From: an uncultured cyanobacterium
GTDB lineage: Bacteria > Cyanobacteriota > Cyanobacteriia > PCC-6307 > Cyanobiaceae
Reading direction: 5' to 3'
NCBI GenBank assembly: GCA_963697335.1
Contig: CAVONQ010000008.1
Span: 32,001-96,000, forward strand
DNA length: 64,000 nucleotides
The translations under genes and the position numbers were made by a program. The notes below the pieces were generated by a model. It was given only the letters and a program-made list of their open reading frames with translations. It did no database searches and was not told where the DNA came from. This document shows positions 7,334 through 33,621 of the stretch, piece by piece (within the stretch, counting starts at the first letter, position 1; the number at the start of each line of letters is the position of its first letter).

Positions 7334-7909
7334 TCAGACCTGCTGGAGCGCCAGAAGGGTTTCCAGCACTTCGTTGCTGTGGCCACTGGGGCGCACGGCC
7401 ACCCAGCGGGCCCGCAGGATGCCCTCGGGGTCGATCAGGAAGGTGTGGCGCTGGGAAAAGGGAGCCAGCCAACTGCCGTAGCGCCCGCTCACCTGGCCGG
7501 CGGGGTCGGAGAGGAGCGGGAACACCAGTCCTTCACTGCTGCAGAAGTCGCTGTGGGAGGAGGCGTCGTCGGCGCTCACCCCAACCACGGCGGCTCCGGC
7601 GGCCTTGAAGCGGGCCAGATCCTTCTGGAAGCCCCGGGCTTCGAGGGTGCAGCCGCCGGTGAAGTCGCGCGGGTAGAAATAGAGCACCAGCCACTGGCCA
7701 GCGAAATCAGCCAGAGCCAGCAGGCTTTCCTGCGGGGCGCCATCAGGGCCAGGAGTCACCCCCGGAAGCCGAAAATCGGGGGCCGGCCGATCCAGCTCCG
7801 GCAGGGTACCCCCCAGGGCTTCGGCCCGCTTGCCGGCAGAGAGCAGGCCCAAGCCCAAAACCAGGGCAGAGGTGCCAGCCCGTAGCAGCTCACGGCGCCG
7901 CATCAGCAT
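7334..7909 (-). CDS. bcp: Peroxiredoxin BCP/PrxQ with Tat-like N-terminus (complete copy)
   Basis: LYFYPRDFTGGCTLEA (peroxidatic Cys), RHTFLIDPEG; MRRRELL leader. Confidence 0.9.
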   Translation of the reverse strand: MLMRRRELLRAGTSALVLGLGLLSAGKRAEALGGTLPELDRPAPDFRLPGVTPGPDGAPQESLLALADFAGQWLVLYFYPRDFTGGCTLEARGFQKDLARFKAAGAAVVGVSADDASSHSDFCSSEGLVFPLLSDPAGQVSGRYGSWLAPFSQRHTFLIDPEGILRARWVAVRPSGHSNEVLETLLALQQV

Positions 7910-7937
7910 GAAGGTTTTGAACTCCCAGTCTGGTGGC

Positions 7938-8174
7938 TCAGATCTTGGCCAGGTTCACGCCCAGCTCCTTGGCGTAGGCACCGAGACCCTTCTTCTGGAT
8001 GGTCTTGAGGGCTTTGGTGGACACCCGCAGCTTCACGAAGCGCTTGCCCTCCGCCCACCAGAGGCGGCGCTCCTGGAGATTCACCTGTTGGAGCTTCTTG
8101 GTGCGCACGTGGGAGTGCGAGACGGCCATGCCGTTGTTGGCGCGCTTGCCGGTGAGCTGGCAGACCCGGGACAT
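7938..8174 (-). CDS. rpmB: 50S ribosomal protein L28 (copy 1)
   Basis: [34 protein letters not shown]. Confidence 0.97.
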
Positions 8175-8266
8175 GACCTACAACCGTTCAGAACAACTTC
8201 TGGGCATATGCCCAAGCGGAGACTTTACCAAAGAGTCGAGGCCTGCAGTGGCATCTCCCCAGGGGT

Positions 8267-9937
8267 TCAGAGGCCGCGCTCCATCAGCTGACCCATCAGA
8301 TCGGCGCTGCGTTGCTGGAAGCCCGCCAGCTGGTTGGGCTCGAGGCCACCCACCGCCAGGCGGGCCATCTCGTAGAGGTGGGCGCTGAGGGCGCTGGCCA
8401 GCTCCTGGCTGGGGGAGCTGCCCGAACCGGTGATCACCGAGCCGGCGCTGAGCTTCAGCAGCCCTTCCACCAGCCGGTGACGGCGGTTGATCAGCAGCAC
8501 GTGGTGGTCGGGCAGGCCTGGCAGGCGCTGTTCCATCAGGGCGCCCATGTCGTTGATGCGGCGCATCTGCTCCGGCAGCAGGATCAGGGCTGCGGGGGCG
8601 TTGTCGCCCTTCAGCGCCTGGATCTGGAGGGTCACCCGGTCGTCGTTGAGGGCCGCCTTGAACAACTCGCGCAGCTTCTCGGAACTGTCCTTGCCCTCGG
8701 CATCGGCCAGTTCACTCTCCTTCTCCTGCAGGGAGTCATCCAGCTCGGCATCGACCCGCTGGAACTTGAGCTCCTCGTGGCGCATCTCCAGCCAGGGGAT
8801 GAACTGGGTATCGATGAAGGTGTCGGCCAGCAGCACTTCGGCGTCCTGGCTCTTCCACAGGGCGAGGGGGCCTGCCTGGCCGGCCTCATCGGTGCAATAG
8901 AGCACCCGCTTGTCGTTGTCCCCGCTGAGGCGACCGCGGTAGCCCAGCAGGGTGGTGAAGGCCTTGCCGCCCTCGGCCGGGATCGGATCGAGGCTGGTGC
9001 CTTCGGCGGGGTCGCCCTCCATGGCTGCGGCGGTGGTGCCGAACAGCACCAGATCCGCCACCTGGTCAGCGAACTTGTCGTCTTCCATGGCGCCAATCTT
9101 GATGAAGGGGGCCACGGATTCCCAGATCTCGGCGTAGCGCCTGGGATCGTCGCGGTGCAGCTCCTTGAGCCGATCCCCCACCTTCTTGGCCACGAAGCCG
9201 CCAATCGAGCGCACGCGGCGATCGGTCTGCAGGGCTGAGCGGCTCACATTGAGGGGGATGTCCGGCGAGTCGATCACGCCGCGCAGGGGCAGCAGGTAGC
9301 GGGGCACCACCTCCTTGATCGAGTCGCTCACGAACACCTGGTTGCAGTAGAGCTTGATTTCGCCCTTCTCCCAGTCGGCCCGGCCGCTGGATTTCGGGAA
9401 ATAGAGGATGCCCTGCAGGGTGTAGGGGTAGTCGGTGTTGAGGTGCACCCAGAGCAGGGGGTCGCCCTGGAAGGGGTAGAGGTAGCGATAGAGCTCGATG
9501 TAGTCGTTGGCGCTGAGCTCGCGGGCGCTCTTGCGCCACGGAGCCTCCCGCTTGTTGACGGTCTCGCCCTCCAGCTGCACCGCCACGGGCATGAAGTCGC
9601 AGTAGGTGGTGATCAGGGTGCGGATGCGGGAGGGCTCGATGTACTCGAGCTCCTCCTCCATCAGGTGCAGGATCACATCGGTGCCCGGCTCGCTGCGTTC
9701 CGCGGCCTCAAGGCTGAAGTTGGGGGAGCCATCGCAGCTCCAGCGCACCGCCTCACTGCCCTCCCGCGCGCTCAGGGTCACCAGCTCCACCTGGCTGGCC
9801 ACCATGAAACTGGAGTAGAATCCCAGTCCGAAGTGGCCGATGATGGCGTCGCCCTCGCTCTTGTACTTCTCGAGGAAGTCTTCGGCGCTGGAGAAGGCCA
9901 CCTGGTTGATGTAGCGCTTCACCTCATCGGCGCTCAT
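8267..9937 (-). pseudogene. htpG: 5'-truncated htpG copy created by the duplication
   Basis: Near-identical to the distal part of 10782-12698 but begins at MSADEVK; lacks ELVSN and DNGIG of the ATPase domain. Confidence 0.85.
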
Positions 9938-10424
9938 GCCGGGGGTCGATCAGGAAGGTGTGGCGCTGGGAAAAGGGAGCCAGCCAACTGCCGTAGCGCC
10001 CGCTCACCTGGCCGGCGGGGTCGGAGAGGAGCGGGAACACCAGTCCCTCACTGCTGCAGAAGTCGCTGTGGGAGGAGGCGTCGTCGGCGCTCACCCCAAC
10101 CACGGCGGCTCCGGCGGCCTTGAAGCGGGCCAGATCCTTCTGGAAGCCCCGGGCTTCGAGGGTGCAGCCGCCGGTGAAGTCGCGCGGGTAGAAATAGAGC
10201 ACCAGCCACTGGCCAGCGAAATCAGCCAGAGCCAGCAGGCTTTCCTGCGGGGCGCCATCAGGGCCAGGAGTCACCCCCGGAAGCCGAAAATCGGGGGCCG
10301 GCCGATCCAGGTCGGGCAGGGTACCCCCCAGGGCTTCGGCCCGCTTGCCGGCAGAGAGCAGGCCCAAGCCCAAAACCAGGGCCGAGGTGCCAGCCCGTAG
10401 CAGCTCACGGCGCCGCATCAGCAT
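9924..10424 (-). pseudogene. bcp: 3'-truncated bcp copy at the duplication junction
   Basis: Matches copy 1 up to FLIDP, then reads RHERR* in out-of-frame htpG sequence. Confidence 0.85.
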
Positions 10425-10452
10425 GAAGGTTTTGAACTCCCAGTCTGGTGGC

Positions 10453-10689
10453 TCAGATCTTGGCCAGGTTCACGCCCAGCTCCTTGGCATAGGCACCGAG
10501 ACCCTTCTTCTGGATGGTCTTGAGGGCTTTGGTGGACACCCGCAGCTTCACGAAGCGCTTGCCCTCCGCCCACCAGAGGCGGCGCTCCTGGAGATTCACC
10601 TGTTGGAGCTTCTTGGTGCGCACGTGGGAGTGCGAGACGGCCATGCCGTTGTTGGCGCGCTTGCCGGTGAGCTGGCAGACCCGGGACAT
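10453..10689 (-). CDS. rpmB: 50S ribosomal protein L28 (copy 2)
   Basis: Protein identical to copy 1; one synonymous difference (7974/10489). Confidence 0.95.
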
Positions 10690-10781
10690 GACCTACAACC
10701 GTTCAGAACAACTTCTGGGCATATGCCCAAGCGGAGACTTTACCAAAGAGTCGAGGCCTGCAGTGGCATCTCCCCAGGGGT

Positions 10782-12698
10782 TCAGAGGCCGCGCTCCATC
10801 AGCTGACCCATCAGATCGGCGCTGCGTTGCTGGAAGCCCGCCAGCTGGTTGGGCTCGAGGCCACCCACCGCCAGGCGGGCCATCTCGTAGAGGTGGGCGC
10901 TGAGGGCGCTGGCCAGCTCCTGGCTGGGGGAGCTGCCCGAACCGGTGATCACCGAGCCGGCGCTGAGCTTCAGCAGCCCTTCCACCAGCCGGTGACGGCG
11001 GTTGATCAGCAGCACGTGGTGGTCGGGCAGGCCTGGCAGGCGCTGTTCCATCAGGGCGCCCATGTCGTTGATGCGGCGCATCTGCTCCGGCAGCAGGATC
11101 AGGGCTGCGGGGGCGTTGTCGCCCTTCAGCGCCTGGATCTGGAGGGTCACCCGGTCGTCGTTGAGGGCCGCCTTGAACAACTCGCGCAGCTTCTCGGAAC
11201 TGTCCTTGCCCTCGGCATCGGCCAGTTCACTCTCCTTCTCCTGCAGGGAGTCATCCAGCTCGGCATCGACCCGCTGGAACTTGAGCTCCTCGTGGCGCAT
11301 CTCCAGCCAGGGGATGAACTGGGTATCGATGAAGGTGTCGGCCAGCAGCACTTCGGCGTCCTGGCTCTTCCACAGGGCGAGGGGGCCTGCCTGGCCGGCC
11401 TCATCGGTGCAATAGAGCACCCGCTTGTCGTTGTCCCCGCTGAGGCGACCGCGGTAGCCCAGCAGGGTGGTGAAGGCCTTGCCGCCCTCGGCCGGGATCG
11501 GATCGAGGCTGGTGCCTTCGGCGGGGTCGCCCTCCATGGCTGCGGCGGTGGTGCCGAACAGCACCAGATCCGCCACCTGGTCAGCGAACTTGTCGTCTTC
11601 CATGGCGCCAATCTTGATGAAGGGGGCCACGGATTCCCAGATCTCGGCGTAGCGCCTGGGATCGTCGCGGTGCAGCTCCTTGAGCCGATCCCCCACCTTC
11701 TTGGCCACGAAGCCGCCAATCGAGCGCACGCGGCGATCGGTCTGCAGGGCTGAGCGGCTCACATTGAGGGGGATGTCCGGCGAGTCGATCACGCCGCGCA
11801 GGGGCAGCAGGTAGCGGGGCACCACCTCCTTGATCGAGTCGCTCACGAACACCTGGTTGCAGTAGAGCTTGATTTCGCCCTTCTCCCAGTCGGCCCGGCC
11901 GCTGGATTTCGGGAAATAGAGGATGCCCTGCAGGGTGTAGGGGTAGTCGGTGTTGAGGTGCACCCAGAGCAGGGGGTCGCCCTGGAAGGGGTAGAGGTAG
12001 CGATAGAGCTCGATGTAGTCGTTGTCGCTGAGCTCGCGGGCGCTCTTGCGCCACGGAGCCTCCCGCTTGTTGACGGTCTCGCCCTCCAGCTGCACCGCCA
12101 CGGGCATGAAGTCGCAGTAGGTGGTGATCAGGGTGCGGATGCGGGAGGGCTCGATGTACTCGAGCTCCTCCTCCATCAGGTGCAGGATCACATCGGTGCC
12201 CGGCTCGCTGCGTTCCGCGGCCTCAAGGCTGAAGTTGGGGGAGCCATCGCAGCTCCAGCGCACCGCCTCACTGCCCTCCCGCGCGCTCAGGGTCACCAGC
12301 TCCACCTGGCTGGCCACCATGAAACTGGAGTAGAATCCCAGGCCGAAGTGGCCGATGATGGCGTCGCCCTCGCTCTTGTACTTCTCGAGGAAGTCTTCGG
12401 CGCTGGAGAAGGCCACCTGGTTGATGTAGCGCTTCACCTCATCGGCGCTCATGCCGATGCCGTTGTCGGAGATGGTGAGGGTCTTGGCCTCCCGGTCGAT
12501 ACGGATCTGGATCCTGCCCTCCTCGCCCTCGCTGCAGTCGCCGGCCATGGCGGCCATGCGGCGCTTGCTGATGGCATCCACCCCGTTGCTCACCAGTTCC
12601 CGTAGGAACACCTCATGGCCGCTGTACACGGCCTTCTTGATGATCGGGAAGATGTTCTCGGTATGGATCTGGATCTGGCCCTGTTCGGCTTGCAGCAC
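10782..12698 (-). CDS. htpG: Hsp90 chaperone HtpG (full length; GTG start inferred)
   Basis: GQIQIHTENIFPIIKK, FLRELVSN, DNGIGM, IGHFGLGFYS, PLNVSRS. Confidence 0.97.
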   Translation of the reverse strand: MLQAEQGQIQIHTENIFPIIKKAVYSGHEVFLRELVSNGVDAISKRRMAAMAGDCSEGEEGRIQIRIDREAKTLTISDNGIGMSADEVKRYINQVAFSSAEDFLEKYKSEGDAIIGHFGLGFYSSFMVASQVELVTLSAREGSEAVRWSCDGSPNFSLEAAERSEPGTDVILHLMEEELEYIEPSRIRTLITTYCDFMPVAVQLEGETVNKREAPWRKSARELSDNDYIELYRYLYPFQGDPLLWVHLNTDYPYTLQGILYFPKSSGRADWEKGEIKLYCNQVFVSDSIKEVVPRYLLPLRGVIDSPDIPLNVSRSALQTDRRVRSIGGFVAKKVGDRLKELHRDDPRRYAEIWESVAPFIKIGAMEDDKFADQVADLVLFGTTAAAMEGDPAEGTSLDPIPAEGGKAFTTLLGYRGRLSGDNDKRVLYCTDEAGQAGPLALWKSQDAEVLLADTFIDTQFIPWLEMRHEELKFQRVDAELDDSLQEKESELADAEGKDSSEKLRELFKAALNDDRVTLQIQALKGDNAPAALILLPEQMRRINDMGALMEQRLPGLPDHHVLLINRRHRLVEGLLKLSAGSVITGSGSSPSQELASALSAHLYEMARLAVGGLEPNQLAGFQQRSADLMGQLMERGL

Positions 12699-12700
12699 AG
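12678..12700. repeat. Direct repeat of the htpG 5' end, left copy (partner 14510-14532)
   Basis: GCCCTGTTCGGCTTGC identical at 12678-12693 and 14510-14525; 21 of 23 nt match when extended. Confidence 0.9.
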
Positions 12701-12724
12701 TGCCTATTGGCAACGACGTGTGGT

Positions 12725-12904
12725 TCAGGATCCATCCCGGCAGGGGTTCCCGCCAAGGGGGCGCCATGGGCAGGAAACCGTCCTGCGCCCCCAGCCTTGG
12801 TCACGCCCAGCCGGAGCCACAGATGCCCCAGGGGGCTTGAAGGCGGCGTGAGACCAGCCCAGGGCGGCGGCGCGCAAGACGACGTATGGAGAGGCGATCG
12901 CCAT
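12725..12904 (-). CDS. Small hypothetical protein, 59 aa (paralog of 14550-14765)
   Basis: MAIASPYVVLRAAALGWSHA aligns with MVVASPYAVFRAADVAWFQA with several synonymous third-position changes. Confidence 0.55.
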   Translation of the reverse strand: MAIASPYVVLRAAALGWSHAAFKPPGASVAPAGRDQGWGRRTVSCPWRPLGGNPCRDGS

Positions 12905-12918
12905 CACGGTTCATGCAT

Positions 12919-12956
12919 GGTACTTGCGTACTAGCCATGGATGGGGCGGCTATCAA
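12919..12956 (-). promoter_or_regulatory. Sigma70-type promoter with overlapping LexA-type box
   Basis: TTGATA(12956-12951)-N17-TAGTAC(12933-12928); AGTAC-GCAA-GTACC at 12932-12919. Confidence 0.7.
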
Positions 12957-13002
12957 TGGCGGCTCACAACAGCTGCTTGGCACAGCCTCCCCATCTGCCG
13001 GT

Positions 13003-14130
13003 TCAGCCAAGGAAGGAGACCCTCTCGAAGCCGATGGCCCGCAGGGTCTTGCCTGCCTGGGTGAAGGCGGTGCCGCCGCGGATCCTGCTCGTTGTGTAGT
13101 CACTGGAACTGCCGGGCAGGAAGAGTGCATCCCTTCCTGCCCCTCCGATCAGGGTGATCTGGCCGAAGCCGTAGGCCCTGTCCTTGCCGCCGCCCAGGTT
13201 GAACACGCCGCCACCGGCGAAGCCGCCGTTGCGTGCATCCACCCGATCGCTCCCCCCGAGGGTGTTCACCACGCCGCTATTGACGATCCCGGAGCCGCGC
13301 CTGCCGCCGCTGCCGGCCGTGCCATTGGCGCCTGTGCTCCCGAAGAGCCCATTCGGCCCAGGTGATCCGGGTTCGCCTGTTTCCGGTTGGCCGGTAGGCA
13401 CTATCACCGAAAATCCCCGCGCCCCACCTAAACCGGGATTGCCGGCCAAACCGCGAAGCCCAGGGCCCCCACCGCTTCCAGAGAAGCCGCCCACTCCCCC
13501 GAGGCCGCCCTTGCCGATCACCACATCGGCTTTTGCGCTGAGCCTGTGGCGCGCACCCCTGAACACCACGCCGTGGCCGCCATCTCCACCCAGGCCGCCG
13601 TTGCCGCCTGAGCCGCCGCTGCCGGCATTACCACCGCTGCCGGCGTTACCGCCCCTGCCTCCATTCCCACCGATCCCGAACTCGACTGTTGGAGGAGTTC
13701 CTGGATTAATACGAACGAAACCATCCCCACCATTGCCTCCTGGGCCGCCATCGGCGCCGTTGCGTCCATTGCCGCCGCCGCCACCGTTACCGCCATTCCT
13801 GCCGTCACCGCCGCCGCCACCGGTGCCTTCGATGATGAAGCGCTGGCTTCGTTTACGCGTTTGACGCCTGCCGATCGTGAGGCCCACAGCGCCCTCGCTG
13901 CCGGAAGCACCAGCACCGCCGTTGCCTCCGTCCCCCCCGGAGAAGCCGTTGCCACCATTGCCGCCGGGGCCTCCCCTCTCGCCGTTGGGGGAAGCATTAT
14001 TACCGTTGATCCCATTGAAGCCGGTGAAACCAATCAGGGGGAAGAATGGAGTGGTGAATCCAGGAGTACCGTTGGAACCTGCGCTGGCGCCATTGGCCCC
14101 TGCAGCGCCTGTGTTTCTAAGAGTGGGCAT
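13003..14130 (-). CDS. Glycine-rich (PE-PGRS-like GGNGG) protein with RTX/hemolysin-like C-terminus
   Basis: Long GGNGGxG tracts; C-terminal LGGSDRV, LGGGKDRAYGFG, GGAGRDALFLPG; more A/T-ending codons than core genes; no signal peptide seen. Confidence 0.8.
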   Translation of the reverse strand: MPTLRNTGAAGANGASAGSNGTPGFTTPFFPLIGFTGFNGINGNNASPNGERGGPGGNGGNGFSGGDGGNGGAGASGSEGAVGLTIGRRQTRKRSQRFIIEGTGGGGGDGRNGGNGGGGGNGRNGADGGPGGNGGDGFVRINPGTPPTVEFGIGGNGGRGGNAGSGGNAGSGGSGGNGGLGGDGGHGVVFRGARHRLSAKADVVIGKGGLGGVGGFSGSGGGPGLRGLAGNPGLGGARGFSVIVPTGQPETGEPGSPGPNGLFGSTGANGTAGSGGRRGSGIVNSGVVNTLGGSDRVDARNGGFAGGGVFNLGGGKDRAYGFGQITLIGGAGRDALFLPGSSSDYTTSRIRGGTAFTQAGKTLRAIGFERVSFLG

Positions 14131-14509
14131 GGCCTACGCCATAGCAAGCTTTTGATTCCAGCATGGTAGATCGGCATGGTCTTGCTTCCGTCAGTTATTG
14201 ATCTTTACCAGCGCGTTGTTGGCTCCAGTGCTTGCGCATCGGCTAGTCAGGTCACTAGGTAGAAGCTTCAATGGACAGTCTTTTTCCGATCGAGGCGTGA
14301 GGCCATGTCTGGGTGTTTCTGATGAAGGGTGACCCCTCCTCAAGTTGCTCACCGGCATGCAGCTGCCCCTAAGAGTTGGCGAGATTCGGGTCGTGGAGTT
14401 GATTCAGGCTCACGAACAACGTGCACTCTGTGTCACCGCGCACCCCGCTCTTCCAAGGCGGATTGGCGTAGTCAGCTTGCCTGCAGGTGGATCACCCTTT
14501 GGAATCATT

Positions 14510-14532
14510 GCCCTGTTCGGCTTGCTGCACTG
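14510..14532. repeat. Direct repeat of the htpG 5' end, right copy
   Basis: Minus strand reads GTG CAG CAA GCC GAA CAG GGC versus htpG GTG CTG CAA GCC GAA CAG GGC, then diverges and stops after 12 codons. Confidence 0.9.
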
Positions 14533-14549
14533 CAGAGAGGCACCCAGGC

Positions 14550-14765
14550 CTAGGACCACGGGCCAGCGGCAGCAAACAGTTCACCCTGGATCAGCCCCTC
14601 CCAGCCGGGCTGCCCCACGGCTGCCGCAGTGCTAGCGATTGTGCTGGGATGGGGCCGGGCGCTTGGGTCCGGCTGGGCTGCCCGTCGCTCGACTGGCGGC
14701 GGAACAGCCTGGAACCAGGCCACATCGGCGGCCCGAAAGACGGCGTAGGGGGAAGCAACGACCAT
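14550..14765 (-). CDS. Small hypothetical protein, 71 aa, downstream of a LexA-type box
   Basis: MVVASPYAVFRAADVAWFQAVPPP...LIQGELFAAAGPWS; ATG 14 nt from the box. Confidence 0.6.
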   Translation of the reverse strand: MVVASPYAVFRAADVAWFQAVPPPVERRAAQPDPSARPHPSTIASTAAAVGQPGWEGLIQGELFAAAGPWS

Positions 14766-14778
14766 GGTCTGATCGGGA

Positions 14779-14816
14779 AGTACACACGTACTAGCCGGGC
14801 TCGGCATCGCTGTCAA
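14779..14816 (-). promoter_or_regulatory. Sigma70-type promoter with overlapping LexA-type box
   Basis: TTGACA(14816-14811)-N17-TAGTAC(14793-14788); perfect arms AGTAC-N4-GTACT at 14779-14792. Confidence 0.75.
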
Positions 14817-15057
14817 CCTTGCCTGCGCTGGCAGCCTTGGTGTCACGGCTCTCGGCCGCCGGGGGCAGGTTGCGCTCCACCTGCACGAACAGCAGCCAGG
14901 CCAGGCCGCCGCTGACGCCCGTGCCCCAGTCGCCCCGCACCGTGGCGACGATGGCGATCGTGCTGGCGACGATGCGCAGGGCACGGATCCCGAAGCGGCC
15001 GATCCTGCCGACAGACGGCTGATCGAAGCACACAGGCATCCGGGCAGGCTGCCCCAC
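14791..15057 (-). CDS. Small hypothetical membrane protein
   Basis: AGGAG just upstream of GTG 15057 (alternative ATG 15039); hydrophobic RALRIVASTIAIVATV and GGLAWLLFVQV segments. Confidence 0.45.
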   Translation of the reverse strand: MGQPARMPVCFDQPSVGRIGRFGIRALRIVASTIAIVATVRGDWGTGVSGGLAWLLFVQVERNLPPAAESRDTKAASAGKVDSDAEPG

Positions 15058-15086
15058 CAGTCTCCTCTTGATCCGGCGGCCCCGGC

Positions 15087-15242
15087 TCAGAACTTGCGCA
15101 GTTCGCGGCGCAGCCGTTCCGTTCCCCCTGGCTGCCGTTGCCCCTGGGGCTCGGAGCCCGGCAGCAGGGCCGAGGCCAGTACGGCCAACACCAGCCAGGT
15201 GGCCAACCACGAGTAGAGCGATCGACCGCCTGGATGGCTCAA
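15087..15242 (-). CDS. Small hypothetical single-TM protein, 51 aa
   Basis: Manual translation MSHPGGRSLYSWLATWLVLAVLASALLPGSEPQGQRQPGGTERLRRELRKF; below the ORF track cutoff. Confidence 0.4.
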   Translation of the reverse strand: MSHPGGRSLYSWLATWLVLAVLASALLPGSEPQGQRQPGGTERLRRELRKF

Positions 15243-15266
15243 CCCGCCTGCCCTTGGCAGAGCCCC

Positions 15267-15734
15267 CTACTCACACCCCTTCACGGAAATGCGATAGCTG
15301 AAGCCCAGGGAGCCGGGATGGCGGCTGGAGCCCACGCGGAAGTTCATCAGCCGGCTGCGTCGGCCGGGCACGGCCTTGAAGGGGCCGAACTCCCGTCCCT
15401 CGCCGGGATTGAAGGTCGGCGTTTCGTTGATCACCTGCAGATTGGCCCCATCGGTGAACACCATGAAGCCCGCAATCGGAAACAGGGCCCGTTCCGTGGA
15501 GGCGGAGGTGAAGAAGAAGCGATAGCTCTTGTAATCCCGATCCACCACGAAATCGGTGTTCCAGTTCGTGCGGCCCAGGGCCCGGTCAGGACCGATCTGT
15601 TTGCTCACCACTGGGTCACCACCCCCGCCCAGGGGCACCAGGAACCTGCAGCTGGCCTGGGCCGGGGCGAGCCCCGAGGTGGCCGTGATCGCGAGGGTGG
15701 AGAGCATGGCAAGGCTCCCGCCAATCCAGGACAT
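15267..15734 (-). CDS. Conserved cyanobacterial hypothetical secreted protein
   Basis: Signal peptide ending PAQA-SC; GRTNWNTDFVV, GFSYRISVKGC. Confidence 0.7.
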   Translation of the reverse strand: MSWIGGSLAMLSTLAITATSGLAPAQASCRFLVPLGGGGDPVVSKQIGPDRALGRTNWNTDFVVDRDYKSYRFFFTSASTERALFPIAGFMVFTDGANLQVINETPTFNPGEGREFGPFKAVPGRRSRLMNFRVGSSRHPGSLGFSYRISVKGCE

Positions 15735-15758
15735 AGGCAGGGATTCGGAGCCTGAAAC

Positions 15759-15989
15759 CTACTTGAAGCCGCCCTGCTGCAACCCCGGCTTTTCCTCCGG
15801 CAGAATCGCACCGCTCACGGGACACACCTGCAGGCAGATGCCGCAGTCGATGCAGGTGTCGAAATCAATCCAGTAGAAGCCGGTGCCCTTGGTGTTGGCG
15901 CCCTGGCCGGGGTGAATGCAGGCCACCGGACAGGCATCCACACAATCGGCCACCCCTTCACAGACGTTGGTGACGATCGTGTGGGCCAT
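15759..15989 (-). CDS. Bacterial-type dicluster (4Fe-4S) ferredoxin
   Basis: CEGVADCVDACP and CIDCGICLQVCP. Confidence 0.93.
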   Translation of the reverse strand: MAHTIVTNVCEGVADCVDACPVACIHPGQGANTKGTGFYWIDFDTCIDCGICLQVCPVSGAILPEEKPGLQQGGFK

Positions 15990-16015
15990 CGGGGCGGGGG
16001 TGACTGGGGCGGATC

Positions 16016-17206
16016 CTAGGGAGCCAGCCAGTGCAGCTTCGAGCAGCCGCGCTCGCGGGCGACCGCCTCAGCGGCGGCGTGGCTGCTGAACGCACCCGGC
16101 AAAAGCTCGGCCTTGATGGCGCTGCGGTGCAGGGCTTCGAGGCTGTCGAGGGCCTGGGCCAGCTGCTGCGGGGCGCCGTAGGCCACCAGCTCAGGGCCGC
16201 TAGCGGACTCGCCTGCCGCACCGCTGCCCCCACCGGCGGCCAGGAGTTCGCGCACCGCCTCCACATGGAAGGCGAAGCCCACGCCCGCGGCGGCCTGACC
16301 CTCGCCGCTGAAGCGCCCCACCAGGGCGTCGTAGCGGCCGCCACCGGCGATCGCTACCGGGGCGTCGGGCCCTTGGCACACCAGCTTCAGCACCAGCCCG
16401 TCGTAGAGGGCGAAGTGGGGCTGGTAGGTGGGATCGAGCTGCACCTCCACCCCGAGCCGCTGCGCCGCCGGGGTGACCACCGCCAGGGTGTGGCTGAGCT
16501 CCTCGAGCAGGGGGATCGGCCCCAGCCACTGCTCCAGCTGATAGAGCACCTGGGAGGCATCGCCCCGCAGCCGCATCAGGGCGCTGAGCCGCTGGCGATC
16601 GGTGCCCTGGAGCTGGAGCTGCTCCAGGGCGATTGGATCGAAGCTGGTGAGGGCGGCCCGGGCCGCTGCCTGCTGGCCGGCCGGCAGTTGCTGCAGCAGG
16701 GCCCTGAGCACGCCGTGGTGGCCCACCAGCAGCCTGGGGCTGTGCTCCGGGCGCAGGCCGAGGTTGCCGGCCGCCGCCAGCAGCAGCCGGGTGAGCTCGG
16801 CATCGGCCGCCGCCGAGGGTTCCCCCAGCAACTCCACGCCACTCTGCAGCTGCTCGTGGATCCGCTGCAGGCCGGAGTCGCCCACGCTGCTGCGGAAGGT
16901 GCTGCCCTCGGTCCAGAGGCGCAGGGGCCTGGGGCGTTCGGCCATGCGGGTGCTGGCGGCCCGGGCGATCGAGGCGGTGAACTCCGGCCGCAGGCCGAGG
17001 GGCTCGTCGGCGGCCAGGCGCACCAGCTCGCGGCCATCGATGCCGCCGCCTGCGGCCAGGGTGTCGAGCCGCTCGAAGCCGGGGGGCGCCACCTCCTGGT
17101 AACCCCACAGCCGGTAGATCGCTGCCAGATCGGCACAGATGCGGCGGTTGCGCTCCACCTGGCGCGGGTTCAGATCCCGGGCGCCGGCGGCGGGTTGCAG
17201 GGCCAT
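16016..17206 (-). CDS. hisZ: ATP phosphoribosyltransferase regulatory subunit
   Basis: MALQPAAGARDLNP, LGLRPEFTASIAR, QSGVELLG, GGGRYDAL. Confidence 0.93.
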   Translation of the reverse strand: MALQPAAGARDLNPRQVERNRRICADLAAIYRLWGYQEVAPPGFERLDTLAAGGGIDGRELVRLAADEPLGLRPEFTASIARAASTRMAERPRPLRLWTEGSTFRSSVGDSGLQRIHEQLQSGVELLGEPSAAADAELTRLLLAAAGNLGLRPEHSPRLLVGHHGVLRALLQQLPAGQQAAARAALTSFDPIALEQLQLQGTDRQRLSALMRLRGDASQVLYQLEQWLGPIPLLEELSHTLAVVTPAAQRLGVEVQLDPTYQPHFALYDGLVLKLVCQGPDAPVAIAGGGRYDALVGRFSGEGQAAAGVGFAFHVEAVRELLAAGGGSGAAGESASGPELVAYGAPQQLAQALDSLEALHRSAIKAELLPGAFSSHAAAEAVARERGCSKLHWLAP

Positions 17207-31857: not shown

Positions 31858-33621
31858 TTGCCTGTGTCGTCGCCTGCCCCAGCCTGCCCTCGCTTTCAGC
31901 TCGATCTCAGCCAGCCCAGCAGCCACCTGGTGGGGGTGCGGTTGCAGCACACGCCCCGAAGCCGTTACCTGCGCTTCGCGCTGCCGGCCTGGACGCCGGG
32001 CTCCTACCTGATCCGTGACTACGTGCGCCAGCTGGAGGGCCTGGAGCTACTGCAGGGCGGCCAGGCCCGCCGCCTGCGCCGGGTCGGCACCAGCCGCTGG
32101 CAGGTGGAGCTGCCCAGCCTGGAACCGCTGGAGATCCGCTACCGGATCCTGGCCACGGAGCTCACGGTGCGCACCTGCCACCTCGACAGCGACCACGGCT
32201 TCCTGGCCCTGGCCGCTGTGGCCCTCGAACTGGAGGGGGAGCGCTGGAGTCCCCAGACCCTGGAGCTGCGGCTGCCGCCGGAGTGGCAGGCCTTCGTGGC
32301 CCTGCCCCAGGACCCCTCCGGCCGCTGGCAGGCGAGCAGCTTTGATCAGTTGGTGGACACGCCGGTGGAGGTGGGGCCCCACCGCTGCCACCAGTTCAGC
32401 GTGGCCGGGGTGCCCCACCGCTGGGTGAGCTGGGGCCGCACCCTGGCCGGCGAGGATCTGCCGTCACCGGCCCCCCGCTGGCTGGCGGATGTGGAGCAGG
32501 TGTGCCTGGCCTGCTGCCGCCTGATGGGGGTGGAGCGGCCGGCCGCCGAGGCCTATCTGTTCGTGCTGCACCTGAACGCCAACGGCTATGGCGGGCTTGA
32601 GCACGACAGCAGCACCGTGCTGCAGTTCGGCCGCCGGCGCCTGGCCCGGCCGGAGGGCCGCCGCAAGCTGCTGCAGCTGGTGGCCCACGAATACCTGCAC
32701 CAGTGGAACGTGCGGCGGCTGCGGCCCGCCGAGCTCACCCCCTACGACTACGGCCAGGCGGTGGTGATTCCCACGCTCTGGTTCGCCGAAGGCATCACCA
32801 GCTACGTGGACCAGCTGCTGCCCCACAGCGCCGGGCTGTGCAGCGCCGCTGACGTGCTCGACGACCTCGGCACCGATCTGAGCCGTTATCTGTTGACCCC
32901 CGGCCGGGGCGTGCAGAGCCTGCGTCAGAGCGGCGAGGAGGCCTGGGTGAAGCTCTACCGCGCCGATGCTGACGCCCCCAACAACCAGATCAGCTACTAC
33001 CTCAAAGGCGCCGTGGTGGCTCTGGTGCTCGACCTGCACCTGCGTCGCCTGGGCAGTGGCCTGCCGGTGGTGTTGCGGCAGCTCTGGCGGCGGCTGGGCA
33101 GCGTGGGCCGTGGTTACCGGGAGGCCGACCTGTTGGAGGCCTTTGCCGCCGAGGCCCCTGACCTCCAAACCCTGCTTCCGGCCTGGCTGGAGGGCTTGGA
33201 AGACCCCCCTCTGGCCTCCTATCTGGCCGATGTGGGGCTGAGCCTCCAGCCCCGCAGCGAGAGCGGTGCCTGGGTGGGGTGGCAGCTGCAGAGTGGCACA
33301 GGGGGGTTGACGTTGCAGCGGGTTTTGCGGGACTCTCCAGCCCAACAGGCTGGATTGATGGTGGGGGATGAATTGCTGGCCCTGAAAGGCTGGCGCCTGC
33401 ATCAACCGGACGACGTGGCCCCACTCCTTGAGCCTGCAGCAGCCCTCGGCACGGCGGAAGACGCGATCCCGCTGCTGTATGCCCGCGATGGCCAGGTGAG
33501 AGCCACCCATCTCAGCCCTGCCCCGCCCGCCACCGAAGGCTGGGATCTGAAGCCAGATGCCGAAGCTGACGCGGCCAGCCTGGAACGGCGGCGCCGCTGG
33601 CTGGCTCTGGAGCTGCCGTGA
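31858..33621 (+). CDS. M61 family metallopeptidase with PDZ domain
   Basis: PAWTPGSY, GGLEH, AHEYLHQWN (HExxH), LWFAEGITSY, SPAQQAGL..GDEL. Confidence 0.92.
   Translation: MPVSSPAPACPRFQLDLSQPSSHLVGVRLQHTPRSRYLRFALPAWTPGSYLIRDYVRQLEGLELLQGGQARRLRRVGTSRWQVELPSLEPLEIRYRILATELTVRTCHLDSDHGFLALAAVALELEGERWSPQTLELRLPPEWQAFVALPQDPSGRWQASSFDQLVDTPVEVGPHRCHQFSVAGVPHRWVSWGRTLAGEDLPSPAPRWLADVEQVCLACCRLMGVERPAAEAYLFVLHLNANGYGGLEHDSSTVLQFGRRRLARPEGRRKLLQLVAHEYLHQWNVRRLRPAELTPYDYGQAVVIPTLWFAEGITSYVDQLLPHSAGLCSAADVLDDLGTDLSRYLLTPGRGVQSLRQSGEEAWVKLYRADADAPNNQISYYLKGAVVALVLDLHLRRLGSGLPVVLRQLWRRLGSVGRGYREADLLEAFAAEAPDLQTLLPAWLEGLEDPPLASYLADVGLSLQPRSESGAWVGWQLQSGTGGLTLQRVLRDSPAQQAGLMVGDELLALKGWRLHQPDDVAPLLEPAAALGTAEDAIPLLYARDGQVRATHLSPAPPATEGWDLKPDAEADAASLERRRRWLALELP

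Follow-up and report, generated by a model that had tools for sequence, protein, structure and literature searches.

The region upstream of htpG in a picocyanobacterial genome carries two diverged copies of one small promoter-and-gene module, and we read the interval that holds them as the scar of one old, inherited duplicative rearrangement in the spacer between a ferredoxin gene (fdx) and htpG, with no active element using an att site (probability about 0.7). The window, that is, the whole 64-kb stretch of DNA analysed, corresponds to positions 32001–96000 of contig C8 of the source genome (G000, 2.58 Mb in 18 contigs). An initial annotation of this DNA had described an integrase-free, att-like mobile islet that entered the htpG start by a single crossover at a 16-bp repeat. 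For comparison, the region upstream of htpG was taken from 20 same-genus genomes, and further searches covered a genus sample of 32 genomes and the Logan contigs of four sequencing runs; the best-matching run contains at most 0.19 of the window words, the stretch is in no RNA run, and all of the material consists of contigs. The left module next to htpG (12678–12956) is called L and the right module (14510–14816) R. Their parts are the following:

12678..12698, minus strand: live htpG start, 21 nucleotides (nt) including the left 16-mer, from repeat count and local alignment
12725..12904, minus strand: small open reading frame (ORF) of L (sORF_L), a degenerate copy of the LexA-box small gene that reads into the htpG leader
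12919..12956, minus strand: L promoter, with a −35 TTGATA at 12951–12956, 17 nt and a TAGTAC/LexA-type box AGTACGCAAGTACC at 12919–12932
14492..14530, minus strand: fossil htpG start, GTG plus 11 codons plus stop, of which the first 21 nt alone are homologous to htpG
14550..14765, minus strand: small ORF of R (sORF_R), intact, 71 amino acids (aa), N-terminus MVVASPYAVFRAAD, C-terminus GLIQGELF
14779..14816, minus strand: R promoter, with a −35 TTGACA at 14811–14816, 17 nt and a TAGTAC/LexA-type box AGTACGTGTGTACT at 14779–14792

The window contains exactly two occurrences of the 16-mer GCCCTGTTCGGCTTGC, 12678–12693 and 14510–14525; dinucleotide shuffles gave 0.12 matches on average, and none of 100 shuffles contained two or more. 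Together with its flank the repeat is identical at 20 of 21 nt (sense GTGC(T/A)GCAAGCCGAACAGGGC, at 12698–12678 and 14530–14510), with a local alignment score of 37 versus 19.0 ± 2.3 in shuffles. On the minus strand both copies are preceded by the same order of elements, namely a −35, 17 nt, TAGTAC, a small ORF and a GTG, which lies 26 nt (left) or 19 nt (right) beyond the small-ORF stop, and the right-hand GTG frame (14530–14492) ends after 12 codons. In both modules TAGTAC is the opening of a LexA-type box fitting RGTACNNNDGTWCB, the cyanobacterial LexA operator consensus quoted in a passage of Li et al. 2010 (PMC3091678). This pattern has two matches in 64 kb (0.03 expected), both over the −10 of the modules, which places a predicted LexA operator in each promoter. 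A consensus promoter scan found no sigma-70 site under a rule demanding T at −10 position 6, the terminator scan of the interval gave nothing convincing, and an Rfam search of 12300–15300 yielded zero matches. The exact repeat, the shared upstream architecture and the right-hand htpG start that dies after 12 codons were thus all correctly described in the initial annotation.

Its view of L and R as two diverged versions of one module also held, since the two are homologous across the promoter, the box, the N-terminus of the small ORF and the htpG start. Over a 122-nt promoter/N-terminus block their identity is 59%, compared with 72% for L orthologs, and from this difference we conclude that the event is old. 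The repeat, with 16 of 16 nt identical, lies inside about 300 nt of diverged homology and hence forms no discrete core. The two copies have decayed in different ways: in R the leader is deleted to ~12–19 nt and fused to the 21-nt htpG start, and in sORF_L the invariant F10 is replaced by L, QGELF is absent and ~142 nt are deleted internally relative to the L module of G012, the closest species-level relative. It is very improbable that two small-gene copies were instead placed independently, with the 21-nt match being chance or an assembly artefact. By estimate, ~0.5 perfect 16-nt runs are expected in a ~300-nt alignment at ~73% identity, but the match falls at the homologous position, just past the sORF stop and in register with the GTG, a second match never arose in the shuffles, about 45 nt of leader are also retained in the R remnant of G012 (see below), and the fossil start is present in the independent assembly of sequencing run X1. 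A third near-copy of the 16-mer (20 of 21 nt, G000:C7:3450–3470) lies in an unrelated coding region without module features and was dismissed as chance.

Two features separate the copies, and a conserved flank adjoins R:

13003..14130, minus strand: Gly-rich gene, 375 aa, with GGxG-type repeats and a non-repetitive C-terminal domain
14131..14509, no strand assigned: spacer of lower GC content, of which 14253–14509 is common to run X1
14791..15989, minus strand: conserved right flank with orf139 (~83 aa conserved), orf155 (15267–15734) and a 2x[4Fe-4S] ferredoxin (15759–15989)

The 375-aa ORF and the 379-bp spacer (52–60% GC versus about 65–70% in the surroundings) agree with the Gly-rich gene and ~380 bp of lower-GC DNA reported earlier between the copies, and the Gly-rich ORF is the only cargo there. 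The same layout is found in G012 (HtpG N-terminus 99%, hisZ 95% and orf155 96% identical at the aa level), which has the order htpG, L module, Gly-rich ortholog, spacer, R remnant, orf139, orf155 and fdx. The window Gly-rich protein and the G012 ORF (L009:1063–2169) are identical at 206 of 359 aligned residues (57%) and colinear over the full length, while the flanking proteins are 93–99% identical and the segment 14785–16399 shows 87.5% nucleotide identity. In the G012 R remnant the −35 is recognisable, the box mutated, the body of the sORF deleted and the leader decayed; it retains the 3' end of the sORF (GGCTGATCCAGGGTGA.CTGT), terminates in GTGCTGCAAGC....AAGGGCC and directly abuts the orf139–orf155–fdx flank. 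We regard this remnant as significant because of its blastn match to the window (66 nt, 76%, E = 9e-7 in a small database) and its position. The small-gene copies of G012 (L009 446–652 and 2745–2932) look non-functional, L lacking QGELF and R its body; the N-terminal pattern detected no further copy in this genome, and the species may have lost the small gene.

Contigs of run X1 are 99.4% identical to the window over 10490–12796 (htpG) and cover 14253–16500 at 97.5%, a stretch that takes in R, the fossil htpG start and 256 spacer nt. Beyond 12796 on the upstream side, and to the left of 14253, they part from the window; this layout is known from two contigs with no sequence linking them. A 30-nt loose end past 12796 resembles the 3' end of an R-type sORF, and X1 probably has a fuller L module. 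Paralogous copies thus sit at the same positions and beside the same neighbours in relatives (G012, and X1 on the R side), as in duplication by descent, and on this basis the two-module layout with the Gly-rich gene predates the split of these lineages. By the initial annotation's own standard, relatives that all had the same cargo in an old, fixed duplication would count against an insertion, and the G012 layout together with the R side of X1 is that outcome.

Across the genus, the order suhB–hisZ–fdx–[spacer]–htpG was held in 19 of the 20 loci, the 20th being too short to tell. Among these 19 the fdx–htpG spacer measures ~90–125 bp in 6 and 0.9–5 kb, with differing content, in 13, and this variation in size and content marks it as a hypervariable islet. 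In two genomes, G002 and G019, htpG adjoins one module only, consisting of TTGACA, the box, the small ORF, a ~85-nt leader and the GTG. Their small ORF ends in ...LIQGELF or ...VVQGELF, so that the 3' end is R-like and the leader L-like, and in its sequence this single module looks like the expected undivided ancestor.

The positions at which colinearity with relatives breaks bear directly on whether the 16-mer could have served as a crossover core. Two features are needed here:

10782..12698, minus strand: htpG (Hsp90 family; Pfam HSP90, E = 1.7e-43, and HATPase_c_3), probable GTG start at 12696–12698
12699..12786, minus strand: htpG leader, ~90% conserved in relatives with and without the small ORF, from blastn colinearity

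The HtpG proteins of relatives can be aligned from the V/L-Q-A-E-Q-G start onward, and the probable start at GTG 12696–12698 was preferred because the upstream ATG at 12767 is unconserved in relatives (G019). The leader of ~85 nt (GGACGGTTTCCTGCCCATG...) is ~90% conserved across at least five species and is carried by G016 although this genome has no small ORF at that place; it therefore belongs to htpG itself, which contradicts the proposal that an incoming module had restored htpG expression. Since the leader (12699–12786) has no Rfam match and is predicted to fold no more stably than its shuffled versions (z = −0.33), we make no claim of an RNA thermometer. In blastn and run-contig comparisons, colinearity ended at 12813 in G012, 12786 in G002, 12783 in G019, 12785 in G016, 12796 in X1 and 12780 in run X2, all six upstream of the leader and none at the 16-mer. 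The variable region therefore begins at the upstream edge of the leader and not at the 16-mer, which by its sequence is conserved htpG coding sequence: with 0–3 mismatches it has a single occurrence, at the htpG start, in 12 of the 20 relative loci scanned. No second copy within 3 mismatches was found in the 20 loci, except for a 3-mismatch match in L013 (position 955). A metagenome scan with a 19-nt leader word recovered 16 loci, 5 of them htpG loci; these five had neither the small ORF nor a second module and represent further short-spacer arrangements.

These data make it improbable that the interval is a mobile islet without an integrase, entering and leaving the htpG start at an att-like 16-bp core, perhaps upon SOS induction, and bringing its own promoter module. 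Such an islet would account for 1.83 kb flanked by exact 16-bp direct repeats, for the LexA boxes, for relatives with a single module and for the hypervariability of the interval in the genus (0.1 to 5 kb). Against it, the layout and the cargo gene recur in G012 and the R side in X1, which marks the structure as inherited; none of the 20 loci combines a further copy of the 16-mer with different cargo; and the breakpoints lie elsewhere than the 16-mer. Efficient RecA recombination needs a minimum homology longer than 21 nt, and the 21-nt identity falls under it. The contig also lacks a tyrosine recombinase: Phage_integrase (PF00589) has no match on contig C8 and all 6 matches in the genome lie elsewhere, in a search that did not treat serine recombinases or transposases separately, so "integrase-free" was an apt description. 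The interval showed no similarity to a phage collection, and full-text literature searches turned up no account of htpG as an insertion site. The alignment across relatives that the initial annotation had suggested did reveal sites with a single module (G002 and G019), but it gave no variable cargo between two cores, and the two-module layout is also that of the closest relatives, G012 and X1. Two joints in the run contigs, 12686->15793 in X6 and 12780->14929 in X2, were considered as excision products and rejected; letters are missing between their two sides, and we attribute them to more distant relatives whose spacers are shorter. The 12678/14510 joint was in no contig of the runs, although contigs cannot prove absence.

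Under the duplication reading, the ancestral unit would have had the order TTGACA −35, LexA box over the −10, small gene, ~85-nt leader and htpG. This unit and the first 7 htpG codons would have been duplicated in the common ancestor of the source genome, X1 and G012, with the Gly-rich gene and the spacer placed between the two copies. The step may have been unequal crossing-over between sister chromosomes or Campbell-type single-crossover integration of a circularised fragment; the two yield an identical product and are inseparable here. Of the earlier proposal, a single crossover thus survives as a fair one-step account of the topology, and att-like mobility does not. Afterwards R would have kept an intact small gene and the 21-nt htpG-start fossil and lost the leader, and L would have kept the leader and the live htpG start while its small ORF degenerated. 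The 16-bp identity would then be the best-preserved piece of the fossil, its left copy being maintained by selection on htpG codons. From its sequence, L may still drive LexA-controlled read-through into htpG.

A foreign donor is the most serious alternative, and we consider it possible if clearly less likely than duplication within the lineage. A fragment from a diverged relative, with spacer, Gly-rich gene, module, leader and 21 nt of htpG, would have circularised and entered once, by a RecA-dependent single crossover in the conserved leader and htpG start; R would be the resident copy and L plus the cargo xenologous, a topology nested within the duplication reading. It would explain why the interior is far less similar to G012 (Gly-rich protein 57% aa, L block 72%) than the flanks are (88–91% nt, 93–99% aa), the leader and htpG start form the sole ~90% interspecies stretch and hence the only plausible crossover substrate, and X1 is an example of an interior exchanged between ~99% relatives. 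On the other hand, the L-type N-terminus (MAIASPY) and the leader match those found at this locus in G002 and G019, as a resident copy would, L is the more aberrant of the two copies relative to all species (51–60% identity), which fits relaxed constraint after duplication, and the donor lineage was not found.

Several observations weigh against duplication by descent. L and R are as diverged from each other (59–63%) as R is from the modules of other species (57–68%), which a foreign copy would fit too. That the junction is the same as in G012 is argued from synteny and from the common end point ...CAGGGC, the two spacers showing no similarity (score 18 versus 18.8 in shuffles), and the G012 R remnant compared with the G012 leader did not score above shuffles (29 versus a maximum of 32). 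In X1 the segment 12797–14252 is replaced or too diverged to align at 88% likeness, and to judge from these contigs the interior may still be undergoing exchange. Finally, the sample comprises 32 genus genomes and the contigs of four runs. With these points considered, the arrangement is real as sequence, and it is an inherited duplication scar and not a new kind of mobile element.

A second duplication lies close by. The segments 7427–9941 and 9942–12456 form a tandem duplication of exactly 2515 bp each with 7 mismatches. One end falls near htpG codon 82, and the duplicated stretch takes in a 3'-truncated AhpC/TSA (bcp-like) gene, rpmB and the last 556 codons of htpG; the junction CATGCCG|GGGGTC contains an ATGCC microhomology. 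The X1 contig skips exactly 2515 nt (7974->10490), so that a ~99% relative is without the tandem duplication, which may be real or an assembly artefact. As a recent event, it indicates that duplications ending in htpG do occur at this locus.

The Gly-rich gene is single-copy in the source genome, and its protein had no match in Pfam, NCBIfam, a database of 5.8 billion proteins or the ESM Atlas. Its C-terminal ~120 aa (…GGAGRDALFLPGSSSDYT…IGFERVSFLG) define a family present at varied loci in 26 of the 32 genus genomes, for which there is no Pfam or NCBIfam model.

The intact gene of the R copy, a candidate SOS-controlled, clamp-binding small protein, is the most interesting content of the islet. 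The initial annotation had treated the small ORF as an upstream module of htpG, a view that its distribution overturned: it is a stand-alone LexA-box gene, located 31–40 kb from htpG in six genus genomes and convergent with a putative RecQ-like ORF in three of them. Its N-terminal pattern occurs in 16 of the 32 genus genomes, with two copies only in the source genome, and a stricter pattern of box plus N-terminus was found in at least 19 of 301 family genomes and 7 of 64 genera, these counts being lower bounds. All family copies share TTGAC[AG], 17 nt and TAGTAC-N4-GTAC. The peptides have invariant M1, S5, P6, Y7, F10, R11, A12 and W17 (SPY..FRA...W) and a Pro-rich middle, frequently with RPRKR. 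The motif QG[ED]LF, which was absent from the DNA pattern used to collect the family members, is present in 19 distinct peptides with Q60, G61, L63 and F64 invariant (10 of 16 genus copies and 9 of 10 copies outside the genus); the exceptions are four copies with another C-terminus, one cut by a contig end and the two degenerate L copies. Codon entropy over this motif was 0.79 at third positions compared with 0.15 at first and 0.00 at second positions, in a set selected at the peptide level; N-terminal figures are biased by the search pattern. The small ORF itself gave no match in Pfam, NCBIfam, the 5.8-billion-protein database or the ESM Atlas, and full-text literature searches turned up no description of it, apart from what the tables and supplements of Tetu et al. 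or the supplementary files of Li et al. may contain. A section of Tetu et al. 2013 (PMC3744912) lists a mitomycin-induced conserved hypothetical gene, sync1474/SYNW1405, which might or might not belong to the small-ORF family. A variant small ORF in four loci (L035, L038, L042 and L076, of G043, G004, G015 and G275) keeps the box and a SPYALFRA N-terminus, ends in ...RYN..N..QSP and not in QGELF, and is followed by a ~95-aa ORF (MQAQWNGAVIA...).

Upstream of recA, at a distance of ~190 nt, there is the same TAGTAC-N4-GTACT box (TAGTACGAACGTACT, G000:C18:473669–473683), and the relaxed pattern RGTACNNNNGTWCB has only 8 sites in the 2.58-Mb genome, which predicts a very small LexA regulon. The box of lexA itself (GGTACATCTGTATC) is weaker. 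A third TAGTACAGGTGTACT box is situated directly upstream of a 91-aa Cys-containing ORF (MVASPSLFPLAG...CLTCRFF..., G000:C18:170589–170885), the first residues of which are faintly like the small-ORF N-terminus and which, judging by the box, is probably another LexA-box gene.

Clamp binders of the QxxLF type typically carry a Q-x-x-[LM]-F peptide, conserved and part of a disordered tail, that docks in the cleft between clamp domains II and III, and QG[ED]LF conforms to this peptide. When sORF_R was modelled in complex with the DnaN (beta clamp) of the source genome in three runs, the ipSAE was 0.67 (0.69, 0.67 and 0.67) versus 0.00 for the best control, a value that may reflect likeness to beta-clamp–peptide complexes whose structures have been solved. 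Of 157 solved complexes 116 attain the ipSAE mark applied, as do 2 of 215 mismatched pairs. Contact agreement between the runs was at least 42% and partner pLDDT at least 37, and the modelled interface would place sORF residues 54–64 in a cleft made up of DnaN residues 175–180, 247–252, 283–287, 325–327, 351–353 and 367–374. The model points to a likeness to the clamp-binding motif, not to binding as such. We tentatively suggest, as a possibility that we hold less likely than the duplication itself, that the small ORF represents an unannotated SOS-controlled picocyanobacterial family of at least seven genera, in which SPY..FRA...W would engage a partner and QG[ED]LF would plug the clamp cleft, pausing replication or gating translesion polymerases, and that L has left a LexA-gated promoter into htpG. 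Full-text literature searches turned up no account of a clamp-binding SOS protein in cyanobacteria.

The islet is a worked example of how a short exact repeat of a gene start can mimic an att site, recombination being in fact bounded by the upstream edge of the leader. The small gene, absent from protein databases, is a testable candidate for coupling DNA damage to replication control in picocyanobacteria; a UV-induced delay of replication has reportedly been seen in Prochlorococcus.

With respect to known systems, the small ORF resembles SOS regulators and clamp binders (SulA, SidA, YneA, SocB of Caulobacter, Pol II/IV/V and Hda) in its LexA-type box over the −10 and its C-terminal Q-x-x-L-F, the QL[SD]LF-type clamp-binding motif being that of Pol II/IV/V and Hda, but it has no sequence relation to any of these proteins and its invariant SPY..FRA...W is without a known partner. 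Genomic islands and prophages that insert at the 3' ends of tRNA or tmRNA genes carry a replacement end, as do the tycheposons of Prochlorococcus, and the interval shares with them a short identical target stretch on both sides and an intact target; unlike them, it has no integrase, it concerns the 5' end of a protein gene and not a tRNA, its cargo is the same in close relatives, its breakpoints lie off the repeat and it gave no sign of excision. Picocyanobacterial flexible genomic islets are exchanged by homologous recombination through conserved flanks, and the fdx–htpG spacer is similar to these in ranging from ~0.1 to ~5 kb with different genes and in having a different interior in a ~99% relative, but the window islet is very small (2–3 kb) and contains an internally duplicated promoter/gene-start unit. 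The products of Campbell-type integration and of unequal crossing-over likewise consist of direct repeats around intervening DNA, with one complete and one truncated gene start and no dedicated recombinase; the repeats in the window differ from them in being old and diverged (59–63%), one having lost its leader and the other its small ORF.

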